NCBI RefSeq assembly: GCF_036588685.1
Contig: NC_086380.1
Span: 11,222,001 to 11,286,000, forward strand
Origin: Mytilus trossulus
Taxonomy: Eukaryota
DNA length: 64,000 nucleotides
Direction of reading: 5' to 3'
Position 1 is the stretch's first letter, and each line of letters starts with the position of its first letter. Position numbers and translations under genes: made by a program. Positions 9,297-58,000 of the stretch are shown here, piece by piece. The notes under the pieces were generated by a model. It was not told the DNA's origin, ran no database searches, and saw nothing but the letters and a program-made list of their open reading frames with translations.

Positions 9297-11485
9297 CTAT
9301 TTAATTACATGATGAAAACGGACATTGAACATGAGGACTTTCTAAATATCTACATAATACCAAATGGAAAGGATACGACATTAACGATGTGTCAAAATAC
9401 ATCCTTCAATAATTAGCCAAAGCCATACCATATGCATGGTCAGCTATAACATCTAGGGATTACATAACGTTAAACAAAGTCAAAAGAAAATGATCTTTTT
9501 TAATTTCGAAATGTTACAAAACGATTGGCACTAAATGAAATTTTCAGTAAATCATTTAGTCAAGTATTTTATTATCACAGTATGTATTGAAACTATTTTT
9601 TCATCATACTAATTACCAATTGTGCTTTCCCGTCGTCTTTGTTTGTGAAAACGATATAACTTTTCGAAAGGGAAAACTTTTTTAAAGGGAGTGTTGAAAA
9701 CTTTTAAAGTAATTTTATAGAATTTGGTGTTCATCATGCTCATAGAATATCGGTGATAGAGTTTGGTTAATTTTTAAGAACTATACTGAACGGCTTTAGA
9801 AACACAACACTCATTTTGTTGATTTTTTTTTACCAAATCTTGTTTGATTTTCTTACAACTACTTTGCATGCTTATCATACTTCTTTCTCCGTACAAAAAA
9901 TCAAAATCTGACTTACCTGTGGTTATTGAACATACCGAATTTTTGAAGTCGCACGAATTTCTTAAAGAAATGAAAGATTGTTTCAGTTGTTTTGCTTTGT
10001 GAAACAGTTCTTCCAATCCTTTGCCTCACTTAAACCAGTTTAAAAATGTCGCATCTCCATTTTGCCAAGACTGAGAAACAAAAAACTGAATTACCCATTA
10101 AGAATACTGCAAACGTTAAAACATAAACATGCTGCAACCACACTGTATGACTTCAGAAACTCGTCTTACTGTCTTTCCGACAACGATACAAGTAGACAAG
10201 ATGTGTTGCTGACCACCAATGAACAGATTTAACGTTTAGAGACAATGAAACGTCAACAAAATTTGATTACGCAACGTCATTTGCCAGACATGTTTACGGC
10301 TGCAACGTCAACTGCTAATCAAATTGCCGAGTGCCATAGAGTACAGATTCATGCCATAAATGTTTCCCATCAACTGAATTGCCAAAGAATCGACTGGAGG
10401 AAAACCGTAAAAGCCACTAAGTTCCAACCGCATAATTGCCAAAACTAATTAATGGGTTGAACAAATGCAAAACCAGAAGGTGTAAAACAGAACCCAAAAC
10501 ATGTCAGACAGAATTCTTGACCTTTCTGACAATTATTTTGGCGTTTGTAACATGCAGTCATCGCTTTTGACGGGGACACATTCATTAAAGAATAACACAA
10601 AAATAATCTAGTGTTACGTTTCTAAAGTCGGTCAGTATATTTCCACTCGGGTCTTTTTGAAAGCTTTATATAGACACCTGCTGTTACTGAAGATATGTCG
10701 CTTGACCTCTAGATGTCATTTTGATATTTGAGTCGTCGCATTGCTGTCTCATTGACATTTTTTTTTGCATCTTCATTTATCTTATATATATTCTTGAAAT
10801 AATATTATTTTTTACTTACAAATGGCAGGCACAAGAAGGATTATGTATCGAAGCATCGTTACAATGGTGTACTGTACTCTCTTGTCTACCAATGTCAAAA
10901 ACTTGTGACAATATATCACGACTGCCTTATCTCAGAGATGTATATCTAAAGATTTTACATAAGATCCATGGAATGTTGTGTATAAAGGATCGAATTGTAC
11001 ACATTTTATTTCACATTTTCCATAGCCGTTGCGGTCATTGCAACACCATTAAAGGAATGCGCTTATCAATTATGATTTGTTAAACGAAACATGAACATGT
11101 AGTCCTATTAAGTACTCTGAAATGAACAATAGTATTTTGGAAAATTTCAAATTCTCCTGGAAGTTGTATCTTATATGGTGTTATACTTTTTGTAATGGTC
11201 TGCATGACTAATTCGATCAATCTGGTATGCATATAAACATGTAGTCAATAGTCTTTTACAAAAGAATCCTTAAATGCCAACATGCCGAAGTTTGATTATA
11301 AATACTAGAAGTCAAACAACAGGTATACATACTGTTGAATTCAAAAACATGTTCCCTCTATTGTTATGATCTGCCAGTTGCCTAGTTCTAGGTCACAAAA
11401 TCAAATTCCTAAGGTTATTTCTTCTCTTTATGATAACTTATCATTTGAAACAGAAGGATATTTTGAGCACGGAATTTATGTTGAA

Positions 11486-14231
11486 ATGAATTATGATTCC
11501 ATTTTAGTTTTGTTGATCTTCCAAGGTACGTAGTAAATTGTTAGTTAAAACATTTTACTTTATAAACAATACATGTTATCTGCATTTTACCCCTCTGTGA
11601 AAAATTTAGCAAAGAATCTTAAAAAGTTAATGCATGTCCTTATCATGAATACAGTATTAACGGGTTCACATGTTGTGTCGGTTTGTTTTTTGGATTTAAA
11701 TTTGTTTTTGAACATCCGAAGGAAGACAACAAAGTTAACCCGAACAATGAGCGGAACATTGTTATGGGCACATATAGATCTTAGACCAATGCAGCGATAC
11801 AATTCCGCACTCGAAGGCAGTCTTGAGCTGATAAAAAAAAAACAATATTGTATACACACTAAACTTCAAGACATGCATGCAACTGAATAAACCATTTTTT
11901 TTTAATCACACAAGACTAACGAAGGCTAAAGGTGCCTGACTTGGGACATGCGCAAACATGCAGCTGGTTAACATGGTTTGTGAGTTACCCACCTTCCCTA
12001 TACATTTTTTTGTACCTCTAGTCAATGTGGAATAAAAAAAAAACACACAGCAAGGCGCACAGTAGAACTCCGTTAAAAAGAAGCCCGATTCCGATGCTGG
12101 AATATGTAACTAAACAAAATGACATCGATAAACATCGAGTATCAAAGGATTACTGGCAGTAACTGAACGTAAGTGGTTTATATACCCTAAATCAAGTTAT
12201 CGTTATCTTCCCAAGATTGGAGGTTGTAAAGGCAAACAGCATACACCTAAACGATCATATGGACGAACGAACGGACGGACATGCAGAAGGACGGTCAAGA
12301 ATATAAATACTCAATGTCCCCCCTTACAATAACTCGCCTGTGTCCTGCATCATTAACATGTAAATGATATAAAGACGAACACGTACTATAACTGATAACT
12401 TTTTTTCTCAGTTTTTGTATCACCTTGTAATACCAGAGCCTTGACGAGATATTATTGTGAGCTTGCAGACAGAATCAACTGCAGAGCACGTGACGAGGCT
12501 AGAACATGTGGATCGGACGGCAAAACGTACTACAACATGTACGTATTTAATAATTACGAGAAGTTTACTACAACATGTATGTATCCAAATGTAATGAGAA
12601 GCTTACTACAATAAATAGCTATAAGAAGATGTGGTATGAGTGTCAATGAGACAACTCTCCATCCAAGTCATAATTTATCCAAGTAAACCATTATATGTCA
12701 AAGTAAGGTCTTCAACACGGAGCCTTGGCTCAAACCGAACAGCAAGCTATAAAAGGCCACCAAAATTACTAGTGTAAAACCATTCAAAAGGGAACATCAA
12801 CGGTCTAATCTATATATAAAAAAAGGAACGAGAAACACCTATGAACCACATCAACAAACTACAACTACAGAACCATGAGAACATCAGTGTTCTTACCTCG
12901 GACAGGTGCTTACAATTGCATCAGGTTCAAAAGTTAAATGGTAACAGTTGGTGACGTTCTGTTGTTGTCTATTCTGTGGTCGGGTTGTTGTCTCTTTGAC
13001 ACATTCCCCATTTCCATTCTCAATTTTATACACTGAATGAATAAATTTTATATACAATTTTCTTTTAACAAAAAGGGAGAAGAAAACAAGGAGACATGAA
13101 ATCCAAAAAAGACATCATCGTGGCAAAACGAAAGATAATTACAGCCCACGAAACATAAGTTACAGTAACATTTGGCGTCTATGGTTTTTACAAGAGTTAT
13201 ATACGGTTGGTTTACAACCAATTTCAAATCTATAAACTTTTGTGTCTTTATACTTTGAAAATGTTTACATATGATTTACTTCCAGGTGTGCTTTAAATAT
13301 AGCAACTTGTGACCACCCAAGACTACATGCTGTCCACTCTGGACCATGTCCAACAAGTTCGACCATCACTGACCTACAAACAGTTCCCACACAAGATGGA
13401 TTACAAGTGGCGTATGATATCTTCTGTCTGGATTTGTTTCACCACAACTGTTTATTGGAAAGGTCGTTCCAGTTATGTGGCTCTAATAAGGCAACATACA
13501 TAAACTTGTACGTTATATTTAGGCAGCAACCATTTGATTTTCTGGGGGGGGGGGGGGATTGGGTTTTTTTCTGTGCAAACTTTTTTTTTCGCGAAGAACA
13601 ATCACTTTGTTTAGCGACAAACCGAAAACAATTTTTTTTCTTTCAATTTTAGCATTACTTATAGTGGCAGCTGAGGGTGAAACAAACATTTTTTTTTCTA
13701 AGGGTCCAAAACAAATTATTTTTTTCACCGAAACCTGGAAACAAACTTTGTTTTCCAAAACAAAAAAACATAGCCCCCCCCCCCCCCCCCCCCCCGAAAA
13801 TCAAATGGTTGCTGCCTTATATCACTATTTTACAGTTGGAAAATTGTCAGATGAAAACAAAAACATGTTTTGACATATTAAACAAAGTTATCATCGTTTA
13901 AAAAAAATTTAAATTGTGAAATTGATTAATCTTATTTGGTGTAGTAATCACCATCAAACTTTTGTACGTTAAAGTTCTTTTTTCAAATCTTCTTTAATTT
14001 ATCACATTTCGATACATCCACAGGGGTAGATTACGATTTTGCATTCGTAGTGCGTGATAAACAGTTGCGCGATCTGGTTTGCATTAAATTTTGCAGAATA
14101 CACTATAACACAAAATTTAATTCATATTCCATGCCTATCTCAAGTTTTATTGTTTCTTTTTCAGGTGTGAATTTGACAAAGCCAGATGCACCCACAGAAA
14201 CTTACACGTAGTTAAATACGGACCATGCTAA
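11486..14231 (+). CDS. Secreted two-domain Kazal-type serine protease inhibitor-like protein, 4 exons, 151 aa
   Basis: Exons 11486-11525, 12412-12538, 13286-13507, 14165-14231. MNYDSILVLLIFQVFVSPCNTRALTRYYCELADRINCRARDEARTCGSDGKTYYNMCALNIATCDHPRLHAVHSGPC...CLDLFHHNCLLERSFQLCGSNKATYINLCEFDKARCTHRNLHVVKYGPC*. CGSDGKTY-x-N-x-C motif; AATAAA at the stop. Confidence 0.92.
12623..12945 (-). mobile_element. Retroposon-like interspersed repeat, family B (end ...gagttgtctcattggcactcataccacatcttct)
   Basis: Further copies at ~16574-16760, 17556-17610, 19970-20080, 45700-45785, 45995-46130, 48690-49145; shared terminus, variable length. Confidence 0.75.
13522..13816. mobile_element. PIF/Harbinger-like (Tourist-type) MITE
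   Basis: TIRs ggcagcaaccatttgatttt / aaaatcaaatggttgctgcc with inner poly-G/poly-C; TTA on both flanks; truncated copy at ~32752-32935. Confidence 0.85.
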
Positions 14232-15194: not shown

Positions 15195-17089
15195 ATGCCT
15201 GCTAAGAAAAGAAAGCCACAAGAAACTGCTGATAACAAAGAAACTGTTAAAACTAGTCCGGCGAAAAAATCGAAGAAAGCCACAGAAACAGACGCTATCA
15301 GTTTCAAACTCATTGTTGAATATTGGTATGAAACAGGTTTTTGTCTTTTAATTTTTGCCTTCCCAAATGAAATAAGCTACCTAAGTACAATTTTGATAAG
15401 AAACATATCCATTGTAACGATGCTTAAATTAAAGTAAATGCTAGTAAAAAGTTTAAATTTAAGGAAATGTGTTCATAGATACTAACATTAATTTGAGTTT
15501 GCATTAGATTCACCCCCCCCCCCCTTTTTTTAATTTGTTTTTCAAATGACCCTAGTTTCCTTTGTTTGACTCATATTTATGAATTGAAAGAGATAACTGG
15601 TCACTCATCTGAATTACTTGCAGTTCAAAAAAGCACATCAATATAAGGAGGTCAATAACTATCAACACCAAAATTGTAATTCTTTTTAGAAAAAAATCAA
15701 AACAATTTCACATGAATGAAGAACACATAGCCTTATTGCTGTATAAAGGATTATATATATATATATGGATTTATCATTAAGATACTAATGGTCATGTTAC
15801 TAACATTGACTAACAAAAGGAGCCTTCTTGGATCTTCTAGTTTGTAAAGTTTCAATCCTAATTCTTCTATTTTCAATTTCAGCAAATCTTGACAAGTATT
15901 CAAGCGCAGGGCTGAAACAGTAGTAGCAGACTTGCGCCAGACCTTTGGTGAGGTGGAAGTGGAGTTCAATCCTTCCAAACCTCGCCGTGGAAGTTTTGAG
16001 TTTACTCTGGTTAAGGAGGGAAAGGGTAGGTTTATTTGAGAATAACTGAGTGCCATCCGTTTTACATGTATACTAAATAGATTTATAATCCTGTCACGAA
16101 AAAGTCATGTCAATGTACATTGTATAACTTAATAAAAAATTATGAGGCTTTATTCAATAATTGGAAATAAAGATACATTAAATAAATGCAGATTTATAGT
16201 TTATTGGTAACAAAAATGTTTCCAGGTTAACGTAAATGTTCACATATTCCCACTTTCTAGGATCTTGTTGATCTGATAATTCATTTGTCCAAATATTTTT
16301 GTCACACATGAACACAATGACTTCCTATTTGGTCTGTGTTATAAGGTGATATTCTTGTATGTCAATACTTTAACATGATGAAATTACTCATTGTTTTATT
16401 CATACATTTGTCCAATGCCACTGGAAAGAATTACTTTGTATTTGGTGTACAGCCTCAAAAGTGATGACAGATAAATTACAGGACAAACACTCCTTTCAAT
16501 ATGAACAATTATACAGTATATATATGTTGCATCCTTGTAAAAACACCAATTTTATAGTAATTTATAGATATAGGAAGATGTGGTGTGAGTTCCAATGAGA
16601 CAACTCTCCATCCAAATAACAATTTATAAAAGTAAACCTGTTATAGGTCAATGTCAGCCTTCAACACGAAGCCTTGGCTCACACCGAACAACAAGCTATA
16701 AAGGGCCCAAAAATTACAAGTGTAAAACCAATCAATTTCAAACAGGAAAGCTAATGATCTTATGTTAACAGTATGTCATGTAAAGCAACATTGCTTCAAA
16801 ATGAAAATGTTTTCTTCATAAAGTTGAAATGAATGTGTTTTTTTCATTTTGCAATAAAATAATGCTATTGCACTGATATAGCCTAGGTGTCAGAATTTTG
16901 TGCAATATTTTTCGACGATATGAATTATAATGTATCCCAACAGAAACATCCTCATTACATTGTTTTTATTATAATTTTTGTTTTACAGCAACCTTGATAT
17001 GGACAGGGGTAAAGAAAGGACCACCTAGGAAGAATAAATTCCCAGAAACACCAGATCTAATTATTGAGGAAATCAAAAAGAATCTATAA
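15195..17089 (+). CDS. SELENOH: Selenoprotein H (Rdx family, CxxU), 3 exons, 124 aa
   Basis: Exons 15195-15325, 15883-16025, 16989-17089. MPAKKRKPQE...LIVEYCKSUQVFKRRAETVVADLRQTFGEVEVEFNPSKPRRGSFEFTLVKEGKATLIWTGVKKGPPRKNKFPETPDLIIEEIKKNL*. In-frame TGA at 15890-15892; SelH motifs NPxKPRRGSFE and WTGxKKGPPRKxKFPE; basic N-terminal NLS. Confidence 0.95.
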
Positions 17090-24300: not shown

Positions 24301-27300
24301 CTCTTAAATTATTGCTGTGACTAGGATGATAAATACTTACTGGGTCATGTGACACAAGTTCTCCAAGACAAACTAATGGACTGTCCATTTCATAAAACTT
24401 CAGCCATTTACCAACTTGCTCTTGAGTAGTCAGTGGTGTTTTAGAAAAATCAGGCTGAAAAAAACCAAAAAGGATTCAATTTATTGAATAGTACATGAGC
24501 CAAACAGATATGATTTACAAATCCTAAGATGAAAAAAGGCCTTTTAAGGTGTCAGGAGGAAATTCAAAATTGTAGTAAAGTAGGTCTCAATGTTTAAAGA
24601 ATACTGTGGATTCATTATTATTCGTTTGATATCAATTTTTGTGAATTTCATGGGTAAAGATGAACCATGAATTTAAATGTAAAACAAAATACAAATGGTC
24701 CATAGGCTTGTATGCAGACTTTGACATAAAATATTCAAGAAGTTGCAATGTTTACTGAATCCATGAAAAAAATGAATCCACAGTAAATGGGGAAAAATTA
24801 TGCCCCTCCTTGCATATACATTAGAGTTACAAAGGGACATAACTAGAGAACTGTGATGCCACTGAAACTCAAACTTGATCTGTGTTTTATAGTAATGAGT
24901 ATTGTGTATAAGTTTCATAACATTTGGTTGGGGGCAAACTTAATTTACAGAATGAAGGCACTGATTTTTTTTTGCTAATTTGTAAAGGTCCATAACCCAA
25001 AACATGCAAAGCTTATATATACAGAAAACTTGGACAGAGATTGAAAAAAGTGCATAATTCTATATACAAATACCATAATATGGAGGTTAGCTTTCCCCTT
25101 CTCCACCAGAAAGACGCCCCCTAGTGCCACAGGTTTGGTTCCATAATAACTGCCCAGGACCTTTCTAATACATGACATAAAGTTTTCTTCTCCAGTTCTC
25201 TTACTAGCCTTTACTTCTATCACCTAAAAAGAAACACAATCATGTCAGGTAAAACATGTTTATGAATGACAACAGTGTAAGGAACATAGTTTTATGGATA
25301 ATTGGCTGACATCTGATCTATACGTTTAAATTATTTCAGCCTATCACAATTAGTTCTACCGGTAATTCAAAATTGACCTGTTTTGTTTTTTAGCCATTAT
25401 TTTGTCATTCTCTTCAACATATGAGTTTTGATTTTCTTGTCTGTATTATCTTCATCTTTTCTTTTCAAGTCTATTTGCATTGCTGTGCATTGGCCTACAA
25501 CAAATGATTTATTAACTGTTATAAATTTATATTGCAGCAAAGAACAATTAATATGAACTGTTTCTGTGTTTATATCATGAATTATTCATGAAATAGTTTT
25601 GATTGGTGGTCAACTTTATTTTAGTCACCACACTAGCTTCAATAGACGACACCAAATACTATCTTGTATATATTTATGTGTATTGTATGACTTATGAAAC
25701 CACTACAAACCTTTCCTGGGTTACCATCACAACATAAAAAATTTCCCATCAAAGAAAATTCATTTTTGGTCAGTGTCTCTTGGATACACCCTCCATCCTT
25801 TCAAAGAAAAAAAAATAATAAAAAAAATATTTTAAGGTTATTGACAAAACATACAACACAAACATGGACCAATAATGATACTGCTTATTTTTTTCTTTTT
25901 CTTTTTCTGTTAGTTTACCAAAATGAACAGTTTTTTGGTTTGCTGGTTTCAATTTCTAAGTTTACCCCTGGAATTCAATTCAATGATATGACAACAACCA
26001 TATACTGTTATCTTTTTGGTTTTATTAAAAATCTGCTGCTTAAAATATAAAGACAGGAGTATAGGGTGTTACTTTAAATTCAGAAATTATTGCATGCCTT
26101 ATTATTGCGATTTCATCATTTGAGACTAAAATGTTATTTTAATTTTTGCGATGTTGAGAAAAATCCTCTATAATTCATCGTGAATTTTATTTTATATTAT
26201 TGCATTTTTAACCTTGTCACAGTTTTTGCAATAATAAAAACATTGCAATAATTTCCAATCTAATAAAAAAAAAATCCTTTAATTGCTCCTGTTCTGATAT
26301 GTCGCGCATCAAGGCTTGATGCACGACATATCAGAACAGGAGCAATTAAAGAATTTAATTTTAATTAGATTGAATAATTTCTGAATTTACAGCACATTTC
26401 AGATTTTCTAATCATACCTCTGTGCTAACTTTGGCAATGTGTGAATTCATAACAGCAACATTTCCAGACTTGTCCAACTTTACATCATTAATTAGCTAAA
26501 AATATAATTTTATGTTTTAAAACAGGCGTACATTTGATTGAATGATTGTTGGAGTTGGTATATCTTTGCTATTACTTGACTCATCTTCGTGGCTTAGTAA
26601 TAGAACTTGCCATTGGGAATTTTTTGTTGGCATTTTTACTTCTTCTAAATTATGTTGTAGTATCAAAAACATAGTCATGCCATTAATTATTATAATATTT
26701 TTTAAACTTGAGTTTTTCTTTAAAAACATTAATCAATTTCAAAAGAAAATCTATAAAGTAAAGTCATGTATACAAAATGATAATGAAACAAAGAGTAAAA
26801 AAGGTTATCTACAAATCATTTAATTATTATTTGTTGTTTCCTACTTAAATGTGTCCATCATCCAAGCATATTTTTTTACAATGAAATTTTTAACATTACA
26901 ACTATATTTAATGGGGGTAGGTCCAGTGTTGAATGATGATCTTGAACTTTGTGTGAAACAAAAAACTACAAAAAGTTGAAAATTAAAATCATAATACAAG
27001 AGTTGAAGATCTGATTACTGAGTACACCATAAGGATCAAAACTAAAGCTAAACTTTCCTACTCACCTCACAACAACATCCAATATGTCTATGAGGCCCTG
27101 CTCCTGCTCCAATCATAAATGCTCCAGGTAAATCTACCAACTCAGAAATCTGAGTAAATGTATAGACCTATAAACATAAACAGTTCAGAATTCAGATTAT
27201 TCTACAAACTCAGTAATCTGAGTAAATGTATAGACCTATAAACATAAACAGTTCAGAATTCAGATTATTCTACAAACTCAGTAATCTGAGTAAATGTATA

Positions 27301-30300
27301 GACCTATAAACATAAACAGTTCAGAATTCAGATTATTCTACCAACTCAGTAATCTGAGTAAATGTATAGACCTATATAACAGTTCAGATTATTCTACCAA
27401 CTCAGCAATCTGAGTAAATGTATAGATCTGAAAACATAAACAGTTCAGATTATTCTACCAACTCAGCAATCTGAGTAAATGTATAGATCTGAAAACATAA
27501 ACAGTTCAGATTATTCTACCAACTCAGCAATCTGAGTAAATGTATAGATCTGAAAACATAAACAGTTCACATTATTCTACCAACTCAGCAATCTGAGTAA
27601 ATGTATAGACCTGAAAACTTAAACAGTTCAGATTATTCTACCAACTCAGCAATCTGAGTAAATGTATAGACCTGAAAACTTAAACAGTTCAGATTATTCT
27701 ACCAACTCAGCAATCTGAGTAAATGTATAGATCTGAAAACATAAACAGTTCAGATTATTCTACCAACTCAGCAATCTGAGTAAATGTATAGATCTGAAAA
27801 CATAAACAGTTCAGATTATTCTACCAACTCAGCAATCTGAGTAAATGTATAGATCTGAAAACATAAACAGTTCAGATTATTCTACCAACTCAGCAATCTG
27901 AGTAAATGTATAGACCTGAAAACATAAACAGTTCAGATTATTCTACCAACTCAGCAATCTGAGTAAATGTATAGATCTGAAAACATAAACAGTTCAGATT
28001 ATTCTACCAACTCAGCAATCTGAGTAAATGTATAGACCTGAAAACATAAACAGTTCAGATTATTCTACCAACTCAGCAATCTGAGTAAATGTATAGATCT
28101 GAAAACATAAACAGTTCAGATTATTCTACCAACTCAGCAATCTGAGTAAATGTATAGACCTGAAAACATAAACAGTTCAGATTATTCTACCAACTCAGCA
28201 ATCTGAGTAAATGTATAGATCTGAAAACATAAACAGTTCAGATTATTCTACCAACTCAGCAATCTGAGTAAATGTATAGACCTGAAAACTTAAACAGTTC
28301 AGATTATTCTACCAACTCAGCAATCTGAGTAAATGTATAGATCTGAAAACTTAAACAGTTCAGATTATTCTACCAACTCAGCAATCTGAGTAAATGTATA
28401 GACCTGAAAACTTAAACAGTTCAGATTATTCTACCAACTCAGCAATCTGAGTAAATGTATAGATCTGAAAACATAAACAGTTCAGATTATTCTACCAACT
28501 CAGCAATCTGAGTAAATGTATAGACCTGAAAACATAAACAGTTCAGATTATTCTACCAACTCAGCAATCTGAGTAAATGTATAGATCTGAAAACATAAAC
28601 AGTTCAGATTATTCTACCAACTCAGCAATCTGAGTAAATGTATAGACCTGAAAACATAAACAGTTCACATTATTCTACCAACTCAGCAATCTGAGTAAAT
28701 GTATAGATCTGAAAACATAAACAGTTCAGATTATTCTACCAACTCAGCAATCTGAGTAAATGTATAGATCTGAAAACATAAACAGTTCAGATTATTCTAC
28801 CAACTCAGCAATCTGAGTAAATGTATAGACCTGAAAACATAAACAGTTCAGATTATTCTACCAACTCAGCAATCTGAGTAAATGTATAGATCTGAAAACA
28901 TAAACAGTTCAGATTATTCTACCAACTCAGCAATCTGAGTAAATGTATAGATCTGAAAACATAAACAGTTCACATTATTCTACCAACTCAGCAATCTGAG
29001 TAAATGTATAGATCTGAAAACATAAACAGTTCAGATTATTCTACCAACTCAGCAATCTGAGTAAATGTATAGACCTGAAAACATAAACAGTTCAGATTAT
29101 TCTACCAACTCAGCAATCTGAGTAAATGTATAGATCTGAAAACATAAACAGTTCAGATTATTCTACCAACTCAGCAATCTGAGTAAATGTATAGATCTGA
29201 AAACATAAACAGTTCACATTATTCTACCAACTCAGCAATCTGAGTAAATGTATAGATCTGAAAACATAAACAGTTCACATTATTCTACCAACTCAGCAAT
29301 CTGAGTAAATGTATAGATCTGAAAACATAAACAGTTCAGATTATTCTACCAACTCAGCAATCTGAGTAAATGTATAGATCTGAAAACATAAACAGTTCAG
29401 ATTATTCTACCAACTCAGCAATCTGAGTAAATGTATAGACCTGAAAACATAAACAGTTCAGATTATTCTACCAACTCAGCAATCTGAGTAAATGTATAGA
29501 TCTGAAAACATAAACAGTTCAGATTATTCTACCAACTCAGCAATCTGAGTAAATGTATAGATCTGAAAACATAAACAGTTCAGATTATTCTACCAACTCA
29601 GCAATCTGAGTAAATGTATAGATCTGAAAACATAAACAGTTCAGATTATTCTACCAACTCAGCAATCTGAGTAAATGTATAGATCTGAAAACATAAACAG
29701 TTCAGATTATTCTACCAACTCAGCAATCTGAGTAAATGTATAGACCTGAAAACATAAACAGTTCAGATTATTCTACCAACTCAGCAATCTGAGTAAATGT
29801 ATAGATCTGAAAACATAAACAGTTCAGATTATTCTACCAACTCAGCAATCTGAGTAAATGTATAGATCTGAAAACATAAACAGTTCAGATTATTCTACCA
29901 ACTCAGCAATCTGAGTAAATGTATAGACCTGAAAACATAAACAGTTCACATTATTCTACCAACTCAGCAATCTGAGTAAATGTATAGATCTGAAAACATA
30001 AACAGTTCAGATTATTCTACCAACTCAGCAATCTGAGTAAATGTATAGACCTGAAAACATAAACAGTTCAGATTATTCTACCAACTCAGCAATCTGAGTA
30101 AATGTATAGATCTGAAAACATAAACAGTTCAGATTATTCTACCAACTCAGCAATCTGAGTAAATGTATAGATCTGAAAACATAAACAGTTCAGATTATTC
30201 TACCAACTCAGCAATCTGAGTAAATGTATAGATCTGAAAACATAAACAGTTCAGATTATTCTACCAACTCAGCAATCTGAGTAAATGTATAGATCTGAAA

Positions 30301-33300
30301 ACATAAACAGTTCAGATTATTCTACCAACTCAGCAATCTGAGTAAATGTATAGACCTGAAAACATAAACAGTTCAGATTATTCTACCAACTCAGCAATCT
30401 GAGTAAATGTATAGACCTGAAAACATAAACAGTTCAGATTATTCTACCAACTCAGCAATCTGAGTAAATGTATAGATCTGAAAACATAAACAGTTCAGAT
30501 TATTCTACCAACTCAGCAATCTGAGTAAATGTATAGATCTGAAAACATAAACAGTTCAGATTATTCTACCAACTCAGCAATCTGAGTAAATGTATAGATC
30601 TGAAAACATAAACAGTTCAGATTATTCTACCAACTCAGCAATCTGAGTAAATGTATAGATCTGAAAACATAAACAGTTCACATTATTCTTACAAATTGAA
30701 GCAATTTAATTGATAAAAATGTGTAAATTTGGAAAACAGATTTTTTTTTATCACAGGTACACAATATGCAATTCCAACAATTCAGAAATGCATGATTTCA
30801 TATTGTACATTGTTGTTTTGGGTAGATATCTGTCAAAGGTCATCATGACCTTACAGCCTTTGTAAATAGGTTATGTCAAGGTACAAGGACATTATTTCTC
30901 ATGAAACTGATTTTAAAGCACTTTATGGAAATAATTTAAGCATTATATATTAAGAGAATAATAATGCATTAAGGGGAACCGTGGGTCTAAATCTTTTTTT
31001 TTTTACTTAATATAGGATTTCGCTATATTTTTCTATATATGAACTTTATCTTATACTTAATAGAAAAATGAAATAAAAAAAAATGGGGTCACCGTTCATT
31101 TATGCTCACAATCTGCCTACGAAAAATGTCCTTTTTTTCTTTTGAATTAATAGGGGAAAAAGCTGAATATCGAGAAAAAAAAACAACTAAATTACAGAAA
31201 TCGCTTAAATTTTACAGTTATTTAGTTTAAGTACAGCTTATTCAAAATCAACAATAAAAAATATAGGTCACCTATGAGTTAAAAAAGATATTTTAATTTT
31301 ATTGCCAAAATATGGCATGTATACACCAAAGGAAGATAATCATGAGTTTGACTGTCCCTTTGGTATCTTTCGTTCCTCTTTTGAAGCTTTTTCAATGATA
31401 TCTACATTTTAAAAGTCACATGGGGCCCTCACAAATTGATTGCATGGAATGATTTTTGTGCCATATGATAAAGTAACAAAATCTAAAGGTAATAAATAAA
31501 ATTTGTAATGAAAAAAAAATGTTTATTTTTTTTCTGAAAATCTTATACCCGTGAGCCTCCTCAATGGTAATGCTGAAATTGGGAAAGTGTACCTATCGTG
31601 ATACAAATCCATAAACTGACAATGAAAAACGTCAATAAATGTTTATAAAAAGTATCCAGTTTTGAGGCACAAACTCCAGCTGAAAATTTTCAACTCTCTA
31701 GTTGTTACAAGACAACTCTGTCACATGTATGTTATAATGTTATTATGTGTGTACCTTGTTAAGTTGTGGCAATGGTGTCAGATAGGGAGGTCCACCAATG
31801 TCAGCAAGCCTAGGGTTTCCATTCAAACCTGTTCAAAAATGTTTTAATAAAATATATAGAAAATTGAAACTTTACAACTTTCATCTTAAATTACACAATT
31901 GCACTGTTTTTGCTATTGCTGAATCTGATACATCAAATTACCTTGTAATTATGGCAGACCAGAAAACAGTTTAAACCACATTTATCTCATCATTTCTTAG
32001 GTTAGTCTTACCCATGGATTATTTTTCCAAAACAAGTTTCAAATGATCAATCCAACTTACAATCTCTATTGATTGCTTTTATTTTCTTGTAAATTTTGGG
32101 TTGTTATTGATGAGTCTATGTAACATGAAGATTTAACTGGTGATTATAGACCATACAGTGTCTTGGTTTGTTATTAATGATCATATGTATTATGGAGATT
32201 TAACTGGTTATCATAAATCTTTTAGTGTTTGTTATTGATGAGTCTATGTATCATAAAGATTTACCTGGTGCTGAAAGCCCATAAGGTTTCTGTGTCAGAT
32301 CAGGACAATCCACAACATTCACACTGACTGTTGAGAAATTCTTCTCTAAACCATCAGTCAATACTACAAAAAAAAGATAAGTATTCATCAAGTACAATTG
32401 ACCCCTTAAGGAGTTATTGCCCTTTAATGACAATTTGACACAATATGTTTATCATTTTTTCTAACTTTAAATAATCTTCTCCTTTGAAACTTTTGAACCA
32501 AATTAAACCAAACTTAAGAAAAATGATTATTTTGTTAAATCTAGAATACAGTTTATGTTTTATTTCCATTTTCCTCAGAGACATGGCAGCCATGGCTAAA
32601 AATAAAACATAGGGTAAACTGCAGTTCTTTAACTTATATCTCAAAAACTAAAGCATTTAGAGAAAATCAGACAAAAAGGTGAAGGACAATTTATTCATTA
32701 GATCAAAGTCTACCTGCCCTGAAATTATTAGCAAAATCTAAAGAAGTGTAAGGCAGCAACCATTTGATTTTCTTGGGTGGGTGGGTGGGGGGGGGGGGGG
32801 CTATGTTTTTTTTGGAAAAAAAAGTGTTTCCAGTTTTGGAGAAAAAAATAATTTGTTTTATAATCTGAGAAAAAAAATTGTTTGTTCCACCCTAAGCTGC
32901 AACTATATGTAATGCGACAGTTGAAAGAAAAAAAAGAGCTTTATTTCCAGAGTAGAGCATAGTCCTACTTATTTTTTATCATACAAAATGGCCTTGTTAT
33001 TTATGAACAATATGCAGAACAGGCGCTTACCGCATTGACCCATATATATTTTATATTTTTTGTGCTTTCAAAAATAGGGAGGTAGAAAAAGGGGGTCCAT
33101 GACAAACGCCTGTAATAGCAAAGGACACCAGAAAGAGTAAGCTTACAAATGTATTGAAAGAATTTTCTAAATGTCCGATCGGTCTATTCTCAACTTCTTA
33201 AAGTGCATAAATACACATGTTTTCAACCTACACATAACACGTACTATATTTTGACCTTAGTGAAAACGTATCTGAAATGAACATTTTCATTATATTTCAC

Positions 33301-34778: not shown

Positions 34779-35968
34779 ATGACATATACCGGTAATACAT
34801 TAAGTAGGGTATGTATAGTTATCAAAGGTACCAGGAATGTCCAGGATTATAATTTAGTACGCCAGACGCGCTTTTCGTCTACATAAAATATGCAAGAAAG
34901 GGGTTTTACCGGGATAAAGGCAGAAAATATGGACTGTCTCATGGCCACTCATACCACATCTTTTCATCTACAAATATGCCACTGTTAAATAAAATTGAGA
35001 ATGGAAATGGGGGCGTGTCAAAGAGACAACAACTGCCGAAGCAACCAAAGGGTCTTCAATGCAGCGAGACACTCCCGCACCCGGAGAAGTCATTCAGCTG
35101 ACCCCAAAACAAATATGTATACCAGTTTAGTGCCAATAAACGTCATACTAAACTCCGAATTATACACAAGAAACTAAAAATCAAAATCATTCGAGTCTAA
35201 CAAAAACCAGAGGCTCCTAACTTGGGACAAGCGCAAAAATGCGGCGGGGTCAAACAGTTTTTCTAAGATCTCAGCACTCCCCCCTATACATCGAGCTAAT
35301 ATAGAACAATAAAACAAACAATTCGCATGTAGTAAAATCAGTAGATCAGAAGTCCGGGTCCGACGTCAGAAAAGGTAACAATTTGTCAAAAGAAACTAAA
35401 CAAAATGACAATTATACATAAATTAACTAAAGGAAGGTATGTTTGATATAGGAAATGAGAAATTTGTATTGTAACTGACCACGTACGGACTTCTCATCAG
35501 ATATGCAGAGAGTTTTTTCGTTTTTTTTTTTATAACACACAGAGAGCTTGACACTATTTTTACACGAGGCTTCGAATTGAACCGTTACATTCAGACCTGA
35601 CAAGGCTGCATATTAATAATTTCCTCACAGCCAAACGGACGCATATTCTAGCAAAATATTAGTTATGACGAGCTGGCAATAATTTTATACCACATTCTAT
35701 TCTAGAAAAAAGAAATATCAAGTCATGCAAATAACAAACATGCATAGAGAAACATTGACTTATAAATGAAAAATAAAGAGTAACTAAGAAATATATATGA
35801 ACCTGTGGCTTCTTTTGAATATATTTATAAACATCGATTTAAATTTCCCCCGCTTCTAATCTTTACCAATGAGAAGGCGCTTAATTATACATGACATAAT
35901 ATTACATTTAAATAAGTCAGATAAACAAGTTCAATACACATAACTCCATTATACACATACATGTAAAC

Positions 35969-38552
35969 ATGCCTATTGTGCAGGTAACCACTAGTCTTAC
36001 TAAAGAACAGATACCGAAAGATTTTACAAAGACGTTTTCTGCGTTTCTTGCCGAGACCTTGGACAAGCCAATCGAGGTAGGTATTTATATATATTGTGAA
36101 TCATACATACATGTACATTATGCTCGACCCTTTTTGTTAATTAACCGATTTAGGTACTTGATTTTTGCACTTAACTTTTAATATTAATTAGCTATAACTT
36201 TAACTAACTTGGACAAACTCTGATAACCGAATAACTATTTTTAGGTGTGTAAGATTGATTTCTTGTTGGTTGCTTAACGCCCAGTGGCAAATATTTCATG
36301 CATATTCGATATAACGAGGATTAACGAGATGAAAAGTCTCCAATATTGGCTTGCATTAATTTTTAAATAAAAACAAAGGTGTCAGTGAAGTTCATCTTGA
36401 ATATTAATTTTTAAAGACGGGCGCATTGCATTGTTATCCATGCGAGAGATACTGATCATACAGGCAAACCATGTGGTTACCTACGCAACTGATTTATCTT
36501 TTCTATCTAAATCGTGCAAATCAATATACAGTTGTTGATCTATTTTGGCGTGTCAACACCGTCACCGTGAGGTCTATTGAGGAGATTCGAACGAAACAGT
36601 TTGATTTTTAAAGGACGTTTTTTTTTTTTACAATGTTAATATTGCTCTTGAACAGCCCTCCCAAGATATCTGGTTACAGGTTGATTTTATCTGAATAAGT
36701 ACTGTTTCTTTTCTTTTTTTGTGAAAAAGGAGGGGGGTTAGTTTCTAAACACTGTACATGTCTATGCCTGGTTATGTTGAACAGCATCTTGATCCATCTT
36801 ATTCAGACTTTCTAAAACTCACTGTTATCATTTATGCATCTTCCAGTTAACACTTATCTTTACAATAACTCCATGAACATCTTTTCTTTCATAAGGTAAC
36901 AGAAATAAGTAATCACTTGTGATGCTTTAGTTTGTAAATATTCTCTTTCAGAAGATAACAATAGTAATCACATGTGATGATTTAGTTTGTAAATATTCTC
37001 TTTTAGAAGATAACAATAGTAATCACATGTGATGATTTAGTTTGTAAATATTCTCTTTCAGAAGATAACAATAGTAATCACATGTGATGATTTAGTTTGT
37101 AAATATTCTCTTTCAGAAGATAACAATAGTAATCACATGTGATGCTTAAGTTTTTTATAAAGTAAAAACACAAAAATACTGAACTCCGAGGAAAATTCAA
37201 AAAGGAAAGTCCAAAATCAAAAGGCAAAATCAAAAGTCTACACTTCAAACGAATGGATAACAACTGTCATATTCCTGGCTTGGTACAGGCATTTTCTAAT
37301 GTAGAAAATGGTGGATTGAACCTGGTTTTATAGCTAGCTAAACCTCTCACTTGTATGACAGTCGCATCAAATTCCATTACATTGTCAACGATGCAATTCT
37401 TATTCTTTCATAAAATAACCGTAGTAATCAGCTGCGATGCTTTAGTTTATAATCTTATACATCAGATAACAGAGGTTATCACCTATGATTCTTTAGTTCG
37501 TAAATCTTCTCTGTCAGAAGATAACAGCAATAATCGCCAGCCTAGTGATGCTGTAGTATGCAAATCTTTTCTTTCAGAAGATAACAGAAGTAATCACCTG
37601 TGATGCTTTATAGCTTGTAAATTTATATTCCATAAAATAACATTAGTAATCACTTGTGATGCCTTAGTTTGTAAATTTTCTCTTTCAGAAAATAACACTA
37701 GTAATCACTTGTGATGTCTTAGTTTGTTCATTTTCTCTTTCAGAAAATAACATTAGTTATCACCTGTGATGCTTTAGTTTGTAATGCTGGAGACGAATCA
37801 CCGTTCATGTTGATCTCAATCATATCCATCGCGAGATTTAACGAGAAAGACAATCCAGGATATACCGACAAGATTTCTACCTTTGTTAAGGAAGAAACAA
37901 AACTACCTGGAAACAAGTATGCATAGACTTTACTACAGCTCAGGCTGCTATATCTTAGTTTTATAGAATTTGTGAATTCTTTCCTGCCCACAGGTGATGG
38001 GGTACAGAATTTTTTTAATTTAAATAACATTGCTCTGAATATTAAAATTTCTATTATCCTATATCCTATATACCTTATTATAACACAATAAGGTGTATAG
38101 GATTTTTTTTCAGAGACAAGTGCCTGTGTAGTTAAGGCATATTAAGAAAACAAAATAAAAATAAGTAAAGTATGTCGACTAGTTTTCGGGGCGAAGAAAT
38201 TGAACAGCATCGGTTGTTACATTTATAATACACCATTCTACTAGAAATTAGTTTAATGTAGCTGCTTGAACGTACAATGGAAAGAATTTTCAAGACGAAC
38301 AATTTACTATAATTGCCGAGGCATAAAAAGACCAACCAAACATGCATGTGAAAGAAATAATTCGTAATCCATTTTGTTAAAACACTGAAATTGTGTCTTT
38401 TTAACAACGTGCATTATTGTTGTTGAATAAACGAATTCTAAAGCGAATTATGCTGATGAACATATAAGCAAATAATGTTTGTTTTTCTTTGTTTTAGGAT
38501 ACAGATTGTTTATACAGATCTTCAACCGCATATGGTTGGTAAAGGGAAATGA
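35969..38552 (+). CDS. MIF: Macrophage migration inhibitory factor / D-dopachrome tautomerase family protein, 3 exons, 111 aa
   Basis: Exons 35969-36076 (108 nt), 37744-37916 (173 nt), 38498-38552. MPIVQVTTSLTKEQIPKDFTKTFSAFLAETLDKPIEKITLVITCDALVCNAGDESPFMLISIISIARFNEKDNPGYTDKISTFVKEETKLPGNKIQIVYTDLQPHMVGKGK*. Catalytic Pro1, K32-P33 and SI motif; exon sizes match MIF genes. MIF versus DDT orthology not resolved. Confidence 0.88.
36881..37783 (+). repeat. ~55-bp tandem array (~12 units) of the MIF intron 1 acceptor plus exon 2 start, interrupted by a repeat insertion (~37158-37392)
   Basis: Unit ttctctttcag|aagataacaatagtaatcacatgtgatgatttagtttgtaaata; the last unit is the real exon start aaaataacattagttatcacctgtgatgctttagtttgtaa. 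Confidence 0.9.
37158..37392. mobile_element. Interspersed repeat family C
   Basis: aaagtaaaaacacaaaaatactgaactccgaggaaaattcaaaa...; inverted diverged copy at ~52505-52695. Confidence 0.7.
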
Positions 38553-52000: not shown

Positions 52001-55000
52001 ACAAGCCAAGTTAACCGAATGACATATACTGTCAAACAACGACCAATGTCGATATAATGTTAATTGTAATTCTTCATCAAACACTATTTTTAAACAGTTT
52101 ATAGATATGATATTATCTTCATCATCACCTCTGAAAAGAAAGAAAATCATTTAATATGAATTTCAGTTGATATCGTAATTAAAGAACAGAAAATTGCAAA
52201 TTAAAATATAGAATGCCATATGCTTTGCATTTACTTTACTACTGAGTATGTACCTATTACCAGGTTGTCTGTATATTGATATTATAAAATATCAGCTGGG
52301 AGTCATAATATGAAGTTTTTTTTAGTTTTAGTTCATTTATATGTTTTGGAGTTTAGTGTGATGTCCATTTTCACTGAACCAGTACACATTTTGTTTAGGA
52401 GTCAGCTGGATGCCGCCTCTGGGTGTTGGACTTTCTTAGTTTCTCCCTTTGGTCAGTTTGTTGTCTCTGTTTTGTTCACACATCACAGTCAATATACTGG
52501 TAATTCATGTGACTATCATACAAGTGAGAGGTTTAGCTAGCAAACCAGGTTTGATTCACCATTTTCAACATAAGAAAATGCCTGTACCAAGTCAGGAATA
52601 TTACAGTTGTTATCCATTGGTTTGATTTTGCCATTTGATTAGGAAATTTCTGTTTTGAATTTTCCTCACAATTCAGTATTTTTGTGTTTTTTCTTTATTG
52701 ACACATTCCCCATTTTTAGTCTAGTGAGTGCAGCCAATCAGTTCAGTTGATAGTTTACAATATAAATATGCAGACAACTAGATAGTTGATTTATCTTGTT
52801 GTATTTGTGTAATTTTTTATGATAGAAACAAGTGTTTTATTTCTTTCACCAGGCAACTGGAAGATAAGTTGATAGGTTGTGATAAAACTTATCAAGGAAG
52901 GTTCATTCATAAAGACATTGCTGGTACAAAGTATGTCCAAGTCAAAGATAACAAGGCCTTAATAAAATCCTTAGTACTTCTACTTGCTTTTTCCCTTACC
53001 AAAATCCTGTCTATTCAAAATGTTTTCTCTTTTTTTTTAAAATAACTTTTAGTCTGTTTCCTTAGCTATTTGACTTACTAGATTCTAGACTCATTGTCAA
53101 TCTAGAGTAAACATAAAATTAATGTAAACCTGTGATTATGTCTAGCAACATGTGACTCAAGAATAAACATAAATGTAAACCTGTGATTATGTCTAGCAAC
53201 ATGTGACTCTAGAGCCATTGCATCATCAATATATTTATCCCTGGGAGTTTTAAAATGTATATATTGATCTGTTACTCCTACGACAGCCAACCTGTAAAGA
53301 AACAAGTCTGAGATTTAAAATAATTTCTGATCTATACATCAAACATATTTACTCAAATAAACAATTAATTCTTGCTGGTATATGTTCAATTTTTTTAATA
53401 TATGATACCAGTATGTTTGATTTGTGTGGAAATGAATAAGAAATGTATTTCTTTCTCAAAATGCTTAAAATATATTTGTAAGCTAATAAGCAGTTTCTCA
53501 TGTTCTTAGTAACCTAATTATACATCACTGAAGAGACATATATTGTCGAAATCTAGATCTGGTGAACTAAAGAAATATTGACACCGAATGTTTGTGGTGC
53601 AACATCGTGGCCACAAGTTAAAAAAAAAAAAAAAAATTCTGTGACGTATTAAATTAATATTAAGATCCAGTTTGTTACATCTTGTGATCAATTTTATTTG
53701 GCAGTCGCCAATGGCAGTCAGCAGGGTTAAAGAACATCAGTTGTTCGACCTGTTAGTCAAATGCGTTTTGTTTAAATATACTTTTTCACTTTGTTGGTCT
53801 TTTGGAAAATGTTGTTTGTGCTGTTTTTAGACCCTTCTACAACGAAATTTGTTTGACATGCACACGTATAAAAATTGCGGTTTTTATCCAACGCAATCAT
53901 ATGTTTGAACGTAGTTTTCAATTTAGACTCGTTTATATATATATATATATATATATAAGTTTTTCTGAATTTCTATATGTCATGAAATGACTTAAGAATG
54001 AACTATCATATACCATCCATTAACAGGATTAAGCACTTTTGCTATAAAAAGCTCAGACTAAAAAAGATTTTTTTAAATAATAAAAAATCATACCATACTA
54101 AATCATTTGTATCTTTAGACATTTTCCACGCCAACTCAAACATTATTAGAGAAGCCTGTAATAAATAAGAATTTTAATTCATTAAAACAGGAAGTAAATC
54201 AAACAAATAAATGGGAAACACAGTCTGCACGATTAGCCACTAGTCCGATGTCCCAGACTAGTAAAATTTCATTCAGACTAGTAAGTTTTTGCAACAGCAA
54301 GACTTTGTTTGGACCAATAAGAAAAATGTCAGAATATTGGTTTTCGGACTGGTAGTTGAAAAAGTTTTTGGTGCAGACTGGGAACAAGTCAATGGGACAC
54401 AGATGATGACCCTGCTTGCATATCATATAAAAGAGTCATAACTGAAGAACAGTTAAAGTGATGCAACACAAATTTGTAGTTGACCTAAATTTTGTGGAAA
54501 TAAGTATTGTGCAGTAAGTAAGTTCCATAACATTTGGTTAAGGTAACTAAAGTTAGAGAATGGAAACAAAACAATTCAGCAATTTATAAAGGGACATAAC
54601 TTTAGAACAGTTAAAGTGACACCACCAAAGTTCTTACTTGATCTGTTTCGTGGTAATAAGGGCTATTCCATTTAAACATACATCAACCCCCAGGAAGGCA
54701 CTATGACAATAGGGCAGCCACCCAGAGAAGCATTTTTAAAAATTTTGAAGGATTGTCCTCATCAAAACTTTGAAAAGGGCACCCACCACTAGAAGTGGTT
54801 TCAAAATGCCTTCCTGGGGTTGATCTATGTTTAAATGGAATAGCCCTAAGCATTTCTAATAAGTTTCATGACATTTGGTTGAGGCAAGCAAAAGTAAGAG
54901 AATGGAAACCAACTTTGGGATATACAAACAAGGCTACAGCAGGGGCACTGTTAATTGAAGGAATTTTTTTTGGTTGAATATCCAATGATATATCTGCAAA

Positions 55001-58000
55001 GTTCACATTCAGCCTCATTTTAACTGGGTATTAAATATTTTTTTATATCATGTGTACATTTTCAAGACTATATTAAAGACATACGAATCTAATACTGTAT
55101 TTATGTATATTTCTAATAAAATTACCACCCATAATTTGTCAAAGTTGTTTTTAGTCAGATATGTTTGAACTTGATTTTTTTACAATACTAGTGGCCAATT
55201 TTCAACATTAAGGTAGAAGTTGAACAAAAAGAGCATTGCTGTTGAGAAAAATACCGGAGAAATCATAATTCACCATAATATCCGTGAAAAATATAATGTT
55301 CAGTAAAGCAAACACAATTTTTTTTTGCAGATTTAAATGAAGTAATAACATTCAAAATTTTCGGTAAAATTAAATTGAATTGCCACATGCTGGCGTAGAT
55401 ATGTACTTACAGAAGTGCCATATGTAGAGAACTGATTATATTCAAATAATATCTTCTGTCTGGAAAAATAAAAAATATATTACTTAAGTCAGCAACAATT
55501 CACAAATAGGTCAAGTAGAAATTTTTAAAATGAAAATACCTTATATAAAATTGTATGTTTGTTTGATGGTTTTTATGTAACTTTCTGAAAGAATACCATT
55601 TGAACGGTTATTTACATTCTAAATTTCTTTTACAAAATCCAGTGATAAAATTAAACAGTTTTGGTAAATTTGATAATACATGTATTGATCTTTCTAAAAA
55701 TAAGACTAAAGAATGGAAAATGCATAATCCTGCACTCAATTTTCAAATCTATAACTTTGAATATCCCGCAATTTTTGTTTCAATACTAGTAAATTCTAGA
55801 TTCATTTCAAGTTAATTCAAACTATTGGAAAAAACCTTTCAAGGTTTATTTATACATGAAAGTTTAACTATATGATATCAAATACCTATTCTCATCCCAG
55901 ATTCTTTTATCTCGTCTCTTTTCAATAGCTTCATCATCAAACCTTTTTCTTTTTCCTGATCTTTCTGAGGTATCACTATCATTTCCTGAATCATCGTCTG
56001 ACTGTAAATAAAATAAAAGAAAGTGTAAAAAAGTTGTTCCTACAACTTATTTCAAAGCTGTATACAAATGTTGTTCACCATTGATAGTCTTTTCTTTCAT
56101 TTGTTTCAACTGTCAGTGTGAAATAAGTTTCTAGGGGGATGGCCCTCACTCTGTATATCATTTTTTTTAATTATGTAGCCATGTTCTGCATTTTGAAAGC
56201 TATTAGAGTGGTGTTTTTCAGATACATAGGCATTAATTCATACATTTTTTACGTTGATCATTAAATTTACAGAAAAATTGAAGAAAAAGGTTGAAGTACC
56301 TAACATCTATATATCACTATTGAAATAGCTGAAGCAATACTTTTTCCTGCTTACTGCAAATGAAGTCATGTACTTGACCATGTTCTCTCAATTTTCTGAA
56401 GCAATTAACATGGCCTTTTAAAAAATGATAAGATTCTTTGTACTTCATCAAGAATTTGGTCTTTTTTTGGAGCTACTATGTCATCTTTTGGGACAATTCA
56501 AAGCCATAAATTTCTTTCCATCAGTGTATTAAGATAATAAAAATTTGTAAGGGTTCCAAAGAACCAAGTGTTTCGCCTACTTTTGCTGTTATTCACAGGC
56601 TCAACAAAAATGAGGAAAAAAAATCATAAAAATATATCTTTTGAATCTAAGAAGCTTCTGACTAAGTTTGGTAAAAATCCAGAATAGTTTATGAATCTAA
56701 TAAATGTTTTAAATCTTTAACTGCAGACTGAATGTAATTTGAACAGGAAGAAAAACTAAGTCCATTTATAAGTAAAATATGGATAAACAGGTACAAACTT
56801 TTAACAAAATTTCCTTCCAGATACTAGCTTTTGATCATAAACAAGCTTCTGTCCATGTTTGGTACAAATGCAGCATAGTTTGAGAAAGTTATTAAAATTT
56901 TACAGAGTGAATATTTATGGACACCACCTACAACGGAAAGTAGGATTGCTATGTCTTGCTTAACGAAAAAAGTCAAAGGCTTGACAAAACTGATGTGATC
57001 ACCAATGAGTCAAATATCCAACAGAGTTCAAATGACATGGATTTCAAAAATTAAAATGTTATTGCATTGCTTCAGAATTGAGCAAAAGCCATTCTAAATA
57101 GCTAAAGTCTGCAATTAAAGCCCAACAAGAGATATGCGAAAAAAATCAATTGAGAAAATTTAGAAAGTAACAAAATAATTTTACTAGTAAAAAAAATACT
57201 GATATAAACTTAAGTTATGTTGTTATATAAGTTATTTCATAAATCTGTTATAATGGATAGATTACTTGACTTTATATAACATTCTTACATCATCATCTCT
57301 GAATAAAGAATCATAATCTGGTAACTCATCAAACTCTTCTTCCTTCATTAACAGCTTGACTTGTACAGCATTAAATACATTGTGTACATCTACTGGTCTG
57401 TGGCTAAAATATATAATACAACAGTTTTATTTGAACAGCATGAAATACAATGTTTACATCTACTGGTCTATGGCTAAAATAAAATACAAGAACAGTCAAG
57501 CTCTTAATATATTTTTTTTTATAAATTTGGGTGTTTTTAAAGAAGGTATGATACGATACATATCTGATTACAACATGCACAATACAAGGATTTCTATTAG
57601 ATACATAATCAATACCCAAACTGTTTTTATTGTTTTGTTTAGCAAACATGCTGTTCCTCAAATGTAGCTAGTCAGATTTAAAATATTTTTTTAACTAATC
57701 ATGTATCAGCCAACCATTTTCATAGAGAAGTGTAATTTGAAACAAGTTTTGAAAATGATAAAACTCAGAATTTATCTAGAAGGAACCAAACCATAAAATG
57801 AATGAAATTAATTGAAAATTTGAACAAAGAACAACGTTTCAGAACTAGTTTGAAGCGCCTTTACAGGTTTTATCTTCACACTGAACACTTAACCATGTAA
57901 ACATTACAGAATTGTCCTTTGATTTCTAATGATTAGTTGACTCATTGGTAATCATGCCAAGATTTTTTCCAAATGCCACACCATATTCTCCGTTCTTCAA

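Follow-up and report, generated by a model that had tools for sequence, protein, structure and literature searches.

A tandem array of copies of an intron–exon junction precedes the functional exon 2 acceptor of a MIF-like gene in Mytilus trossulus

The MIF-like gene of Mytilus trossulus carries, across the boundary between intron 1 and exon 2, an array of 12 tandem units of 52–60 bp (~55 bp). The array occupies positions 36877–37783 of the window, by which we mean the entire 64,000-nucleotide stretch analysed here (assembly GCF_036588685.1, contig NC_086380.1, 11,222,001 to 11,286,000). Each unit consists of a pyrimidine tract of ~15 nt with the AG position, followed by ~40 nt of the exon 2 head. 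Eleven units are intronic copies, and the twelfth is the real junction. The array is probably a neutral, junction-spanning minisatellite, the other eleven copies of which are silenced by their position and removed together with the intron.

The host gene is encoded on the plus strand in three exons. Exon 1 (coding, 35969–36076, 108 nt) is followed by a donor GT at 36077–36078, and exon 2 (37744–37916, 173 nt) by position follows the true AG at 37742–37743; both exons were assigned by Pfam MIF matches and an RNA contig. The coding part of exon 3, including the stop codon, lies at 38498–38552, and the RNA contig extends to 38669. The 111-aa product was identical at 111/111 positions to the RefSeq protein XP_063397373.1 (Mytilus trossulus), and four further MIF-like orthologues from M. 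edulis, M. galloprovincialis, and M. californianus shared 98–105 of 111 residues with it. Exon 1 and exon 2 each matched the Pfam MIF family (PF01187) separately. A Pfam MIF domain, an N-terminal Met-Pro, a length of ~111–115 aa, and three exons place the gene in the MIF/DDT family, of which the three-exon layout is presumably a trait. The neighboring C11orf54 gene (DUF1907) lies head-to-head on the minus strand with its start at 33370, leaving 2599 bp between the two start codons. The GC content of the window is 28–37%, as in AT-rich animal DNA. In the M. edulis gene models P0001, P0002, and P0067, the MIF start is replaced by an unrelated N-terminus of ~90–110 aa; these N-termini are likely mis-predictions. 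Four of 24 listed sequencing runs were compared with the window, namely X1 (DNA, possibly the source sample), X2 (DNA, from a related organism referred to as B), X6, and X7 (presumably RNA).

When both strands of the whole window were searched without gaps for the 55-nt junction unit, 12 matches of at least 32/55 were obtained, all of them within 36877–37783; no match of this quality was present elsewhere in the 64 kb on either strand. An earlier note on this DNA had described about 11 copies of acceptor plus exon head in front of the true acceptor, and this description was confirmed by the scan. Its view that the units are homologous to the exon 2 head also held. Nine copies aligned to the exon head with scores of 23–65, the weakest being the eighth unit (u8) with 23, while the maximum of 300 shuffles was 20; u3 and u4 were left out of this alignment as near-identical to u2. 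The identity of the copies to the real unit ranged from 73% to 87%.

The 5′ edge of the array is formed by u1 (36877–36936, +), which is 82% identical to the real unit and carries AT at 36891–92 instead of AG. Units u2–u5 (36937–37156, +) are 91–100% alike, retain AG throughout, and each contain a perfect 12-bp palindrome; we infer that they represent a recent amplification. A high-copy interspersed repeat follows at 37159–37394, inserted at a unit boundary and covered at a depth of >1e6 versus ~25. Its bounds were taken from loose ends, the right one (37394) from run X6 only. A second copy of the repeat with 80% identity resides at 52490–52698. The insertion indeed splits the array as the earlier note had proposed, with bounds that differ slightly from the 37158–37392 given there. 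Beyond it lie u6–u11 (37397–37728, +), with pairwise identities of 63–87%, AG in u8, u9, and u11, and AT in u6, u7, and u10. The terminal unit u12 (37729–37783, +) is the functional acceptor and comprises the AG at 37742–43 and the first 40 nt of exon 2. AG is kept in 7/11 copies (u2–u5, u8, u9, u11) and replaced by AT in 4/11 (u1, u6, u7, u10; positions 36891–92, 37410–11, 37461–62, and 37632–33), one more than the three noticed before, which did not include u7. In u7, a CAG is found shifted 3 nt downstream, and u1 has a weak AG at 36894–95. The middle of the array is homogenised (u2–u5, 91–100%) in comparison with the other units (63–87%), a pattern of concerted evolution inside the cluster that excludes the edges.

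Two further sequence features of the units deserve mention. A 7-bp inverted repeat lies over the acceptor at 37730–37748 and at the homologous sites of the units; in u8 it is changed on both arms with pairing kept. Together with the palindromes of u2–u5, this inverted repeat possibly reflects template switching at the DNA level. The other feature is a GTAATC motif, present in 9/11 copies (37701–37706 in the copy nearest the true site) where the real exon has GTTATC (37756–37761), a synonymous difference in a Val codon. Because the intron contributes just 15 nt to each unit, the real branch point has to lie in exon-derived sequence of u11, and GTAATC at 37701–37706 is one candidate.

Splicing to any AG-intact copy would introduce a premature stop. 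Neighboring decoys had been said to shift the reading frame relative to each other. This does not apply to u2 and u5, whose offsets from the true site (+792 and +627 nt) are both multiples of 3; all seven AG-intact copies nevertheless lead to stops. If any of them were used, the result would be a product of 46–62 aa and a premature stop 147–884 nt before the last exon junction, with an exon of 228 nt from u11 and of 800–965 nt from u2–u5. A stop that far upstream of the last junction is expected to trigger nonsense-mediated decay.

The RNA data indicate which acceptor is mainly used. In contig 25 of run X7 (472 nt), exon 1 continues at 37742/37744 and exon 2 at 38498; the contig shows 0 differences in exons 1 and 2 and lacks both introns exactly. 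The X7 depth in the bin 37674–37769 was 8.61, compared with 8.60 expected from contig 25 alone, and it was zero on the copy-only bins 36906–37097 and 37482–37673, as judged from contigs, which drop rare isoforms. The junctions from donor 36076, recommended earlier for inspection, thus lead to the terminal acceptor in this contig, a single one from a single run that represents the main product because contigs hide rare isoforms. X6 was dropped as splicing evidence, as it contains intronic sequence. The same exon junction as given by the terminal acceptor is present in five 111-aa orthologues from four Mytilus species. We conclude that regular splicing is undisturbed with respect to the main isoform.

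Junction-spanning duplications are not confined to the MIF-like gene. Across seven genes of the window, 75 splice sites were located, those of C11orf54 and CDC45 by homology, those of MIF by RNA, and the rest by eye. At six of the 75 sites (~8%, in four genes), the intron contains a copy spanning the junction no more than 160 nt away, with scores of 33–80 as compared to 17 for the next best. Besides the MIF acceptor, these are the acceptor of C11orf54 exon 4 (27133–30689, −), with ~58 units of 61 bp and AG kept in 57/57 matched copies; the donor of C11orf54 exon 2 (32096–32270, −), with two 67-bp copies following the true donor (32265), each changed from GT to TT; the donor of CDC45 exon 9 (53113–53213, −; 51 bp, a multiple of 3, GT intact); the acceptor of CDC45 exon 5 (57350–57489, −; 70 bp, AG intact), whose copy outscores the real site; and the donor of a Kazal-domain gene (12528–12611, +; exon end at 12538, 38 bp, GT intact). 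The CDC45 sequence of the window is identical (564/564) to an M. trossulus protein. The earlier note had held the MIF array to be unrelated in sequence to the C11orf54 unit and yet of the same architecture, an independent array in the head-to-head neighbor gene. Both statements stand: the two units aligned with scores of 14 and 12, values equalled by 54% and 78% of 1000 shuffles. Within the C11orf54 acceptor array, the copies adjoining the exon differ from the bulk.

We also recorded other features of the window. A selenoprotein H-like gene (15195–17089, +) has an in-frame TGA in a CxxU motif; two scanned stretches of this gene gave no Pfam match. A fatty-acid-binding protein gene (585–6119, +) contains a 26-bp minisatellite with purine/pyrimidine bias at 3440–3826, away from its junctions. 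Two Kazal-domain genes are located on opposite strands (8297–9960, −; 11400–14231, +).

Six of 12 local tandem duplications were junction-derived, compared with 0.94 expected (P = 8e-5). The 12 duplications correspond to 13 rows with the two MIF halves merged, and the C11orf54 donor cluster was classed as junction-derived by hand. Without the two arrays that had drawn attention to the region, 4/10 duplications were junction-derived (P = 0.005). If junction copies are 2x or 3x easier to detect, the master copy being constrained, the P values become 0.06 and 0.20. A per-position null model that included the two big arrays gave no enrichment in the window (8.5% vs 6/75, p = 0.62). With the two arrays excluded, the null was 1.6% (p = 0.001); p was 0.03 when the two flagged sites were also dropped and 0.04–0.14 with stricter thresholds. 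DNA hairpins found no support as a general trigger of duplication, because duplicated and other junctions (6 vs 69) did not differ clearly in the Mann–Whitney test (p = 0.08–0.23); only the MIF acceptor stands out in hairpin propensity among the duplicated junctions (z −2.5 to −3.1). A preference of mussel genomes for duplicating short segments that span splice junctions is a tentative lead from one selected window, which we regard as possible and rather doubtful. If it applied genome-wide, there would be a mutational bias aimed at exon–intron boundaries that supplies raw material for intron growth and gain, and thousands of arrays would constitute a natural experiment on position over site strength and a test set for exon-definition models.

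The strength of the acceptors was scored with a position matrix derived from the window's 36 other acceptors (leave-one-out median 10.7, range 4.7–15.4). The real MIF site scored 11.8, followed by u11 (10.8), u9 (9.5), u2, u4, and u5 (8.9 each), u3 (6.5), and u8 (6.3). Six of the seven AG-intact copies fall in or near the range of normal acceptors. The real site leads narrowly owing to two extra pyrimidines that occur in no copy, resulting in a pyrimidine tract of 16 versus 11–14 in the copies. These pyrimidines may reflect selection to out-compete the copies. The real, homology-defined acceptor of C11orf54 scored 7.7, and 53/57 AG-intact upstream copies scored higher (9.3–11.5); the CDC45 acceptor reached 5.5 as compared to 7.1 for its copy. 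As both real sites are outscored by their copies, the used site is distinguished by where it lies and not by its strength, and what the used sites share is a location next to an intact exon. By analogy with established splicing models and the human F7 gene, we infer exon definition as the mechanism. RNA structure was rejected as a silencing device, the fold being barely better than that of shuffled sequences (z −2.15, 3/100). The acceptor hairpin was likewise dismissed as a silencer, since its 7-bp stem over the AG is equally complete in the real site, u8, and u11.

Independent sequence data support the array. Contigs of X1 match 36281–36955, 37366–37680, and 37651–37921 with 0 differences, and an X2 contig from organism B covers 37369–37921 with 13 substitutions, 0 of them at AG positions, and 7 gap letters. 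The end of the insertion, u6–u11, and their AG/AT pattern are, as read from this contig, common to organism B. X2 gave no cover on 36810–37097, which is uninformative at its low depth. Relative to organism B, the array differed at 9/375 positions, exon 2 at 4/173, and the part of intron 1 outside the array at 2/~283; compared with intron 2 plus exon 3 (32/~470), the array was less diverged (p = 0.003, one close relative). The comparison with related introns suggested by the earlier note thus recovered the 3′ half of the array with its AG/AT pattern, and the array has no special conservation relative to exon 2 or non-array intron 1. The M. edulis model P0002 contains 18 extra amino acids resembling array units read across frames, which model P0001 lacks. 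These residues, which belong to a predicted gene model, hint at the presence of the array in M. edulis and are no evidence of its use. Other arrangements of the array are possible, considering the gap letters in u6–u12 of X2 and the different unit order implied by P0002; no allele with a counted different number of units was seen. In run X6, record 17 (35850–36170) represents exon 1 from a diverged allele or a paralogue, with 7 listed substitutions in 108 nt. The first 48 letters of record 21 (37720–37832) depart from the reference just upstream of 37720, and ~18 of them apparently lie within 37578–37673, a hint of a different array allele. A metagenome scan for orthologous loci returned three loci with 34–47% identity, by identity none of them a mussel intron.

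Three other explanations were weighed against a neutral origin. That the array is an assembly artefact, or that its copies are in part miscounted, is hardly conceivable. The near-identical u2–u5 are spanned by none of the listed contigs, so that the exact copy number there is provisional. Against an artefact, however, the units differ by up to 37%, X1 matches u1 and u6–u12 without a difference, and u6–u12 recur in another organism; the existence of the array, which the earlier note had wanted secured against this objection, is established by the X1 contigs over both degenerate parts. It is also quite improbable that the array serves regulated unproductive splicing, that is, as a rheostat tuned by copy number which diverts a fraction of the MIF-like transcripts into nonsense-mediated decay. 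Such a function would fit the stops of all seven intact copies, each lying over 50 nt upstream of the last junction, the scores of several copies, which resemble those of normal acceptors, and the 3′ half shared with organism B, where 0/13 substitutions fall on an AG. It is opposed by the absence of X7 RNA contigs on the copies, by a conservation not above that of flanking intron 1 or exon 2, and by the same architecture at five other junctions in unrelated genes of the window, as expected of a mutational by-product.

The remaining explanation, purifying selection against a slightly deleterious leak, is unlikely, and it has more in its favor than the previous two. Here, intact copies would take a small share of splicing, and changes from AG to AT as well as a stronger true site would be favored. 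For the tests of AG loss, u2–u5 were collapsed, leaving 8 independent copies. The G of the AG column was lost in 4/8 copies versus 12/64 at other G columns (Fisher p = 0.067, binomial 0.046) and versus 60/418 over all columns (binomial 0.018). The change of both C11orf54 donor copies from GT to TT and the extended pyrimidine tract found at the true site alone point in the same direction. On the other hand, four other columns are likewise changed in 4 copies each, and all four AG losses are G to T, with the A never changed. This substitution occurred in 4/8 copies at the AG column versus 4/64 at other G columns (Fisher p = 0.004). Four identical changes are improbable if they were independent (~0.012), which favors a single substitution multiplied along with the units. 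In the unit tree (supports 0.06–0.9), the four AT units do not cluster, and their shared ancestry is neither confirmed nor excluded. Moreover, u11, the nearest and strongest copy, is intact, as are the recently amplified u2–u5 and all 57 matched C11orf54 acceptor copies. The earlier note had implied working decoys under selection to lose their AG and had advised aligning the units to see if AG loss exceeds background substitution. The alignment does not bear this out: the RNA contig uses the terminal acceptor, 7/11 copies keep AG, other columns vary as often, and the C11orf54 array speaks against such selection as well. The counts do not demonstrate selection on the AG, which may still have played a part.

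The neutral minisatellite that we favor may have originated as follows. First, slippage or unequal crossover would have duplicated 55 bp spanning the end of intron 1 and the start of exon 2, an event that the 7-bp hairpin over the acceptor may have promoted. The array would then have grown, diverged, and received the repeat insertion, before u2–u5 were re-amplified recently. The spliceosome would pick the acceptor adjoining the intact exon and its donor, by exon definition or proximity, with a small advantage in strength. Any leak would end in a premature stop and degradation, and because leak products would be degraded, selection on the copies would be weak. Weighing against this view are the excess of G to T at the AG column, the two pyrimidines peculiar to the true site, the lower divergence of the array from organism B in comparison with intron 2 plus exon 3, and the array-like residues of P0002; low-level use of the copies may also escape contig data.

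The MIF array belongs to the class of "mirage" minisatellites of lancelets, as its unit spans an exon–intron boundary and the end unit is the authentic junction. In Amphioxus, mirages have been described for Adh3, troponin C, the globins BflGb6 and BflGb9, and PGBD5 (PMC3087553, PMC3902484), those of troponin C and PGBD5 in PMC3902484. Many, but not all, of their copies keep AG/GT, splicing is undisturbed, haplotypes vary in length, and the arrays undergo concerted evolution; somatic instability was reported for the Adh3 mirage. No report of a mollusc mirage was found in a literature search of titles and abstract openings, in which most subscription journals were not covered. Like the Amphioxus mirages, the MIF array repeats in tandem the 3′ end of an intron together with the head of the following exon, and BflGb6 is likewise of the acceptor type; AG persists in many copies though not in all, regular splicing is undisturbed, the middle is homogenised, and the edges are diverged. 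The unit length is within the 10–72 bp given for the Adh3 mirage. Unlike those mirages, the MIF array resides in a bivalve mollusc and is split by an interspersed-repeat insertion. In humans, CBS 844ins68 is a duplication that includes a 3′ splice site, of which the distal copy serves in splicing (PMC1802585, PMC1334203, PMC3298348); there, one extra 68-bp copy is present and G runs between the sites aid selection, whereas the MIF array has 11 copies of an AT-rich unit. The 37-bp VNTR in IVS7 of human F7 has an end unit spanning the junction and pseudo-sites that are functional but silent by position (PMC1557585). With identical copies on the donor side, it is closer to the donor duplications of the window than to the MIF acceptor array. 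In the published mirages, F7 IVS7, and CBS 844ins68, the exon-adjacent site is used. Intron gain by tandem genomic duplication (PMC3443670) resembles our case in that duplicated splice-signal sequence is removed as intron, and differs in that the MIF array lengthened an existing intron and created no new one. Internal tandem repeats have also been reported at exon–intron boundaries of duplicated human genes (PMC2812944). A practical hazard of such arrays is that the copies can mislead gene prediction and short-read alignment, as exemplified by M. edulis P0002. While of modest value as a single locus, the MIF array extends the phenomenon known from lancelets and humans to a bivalve.
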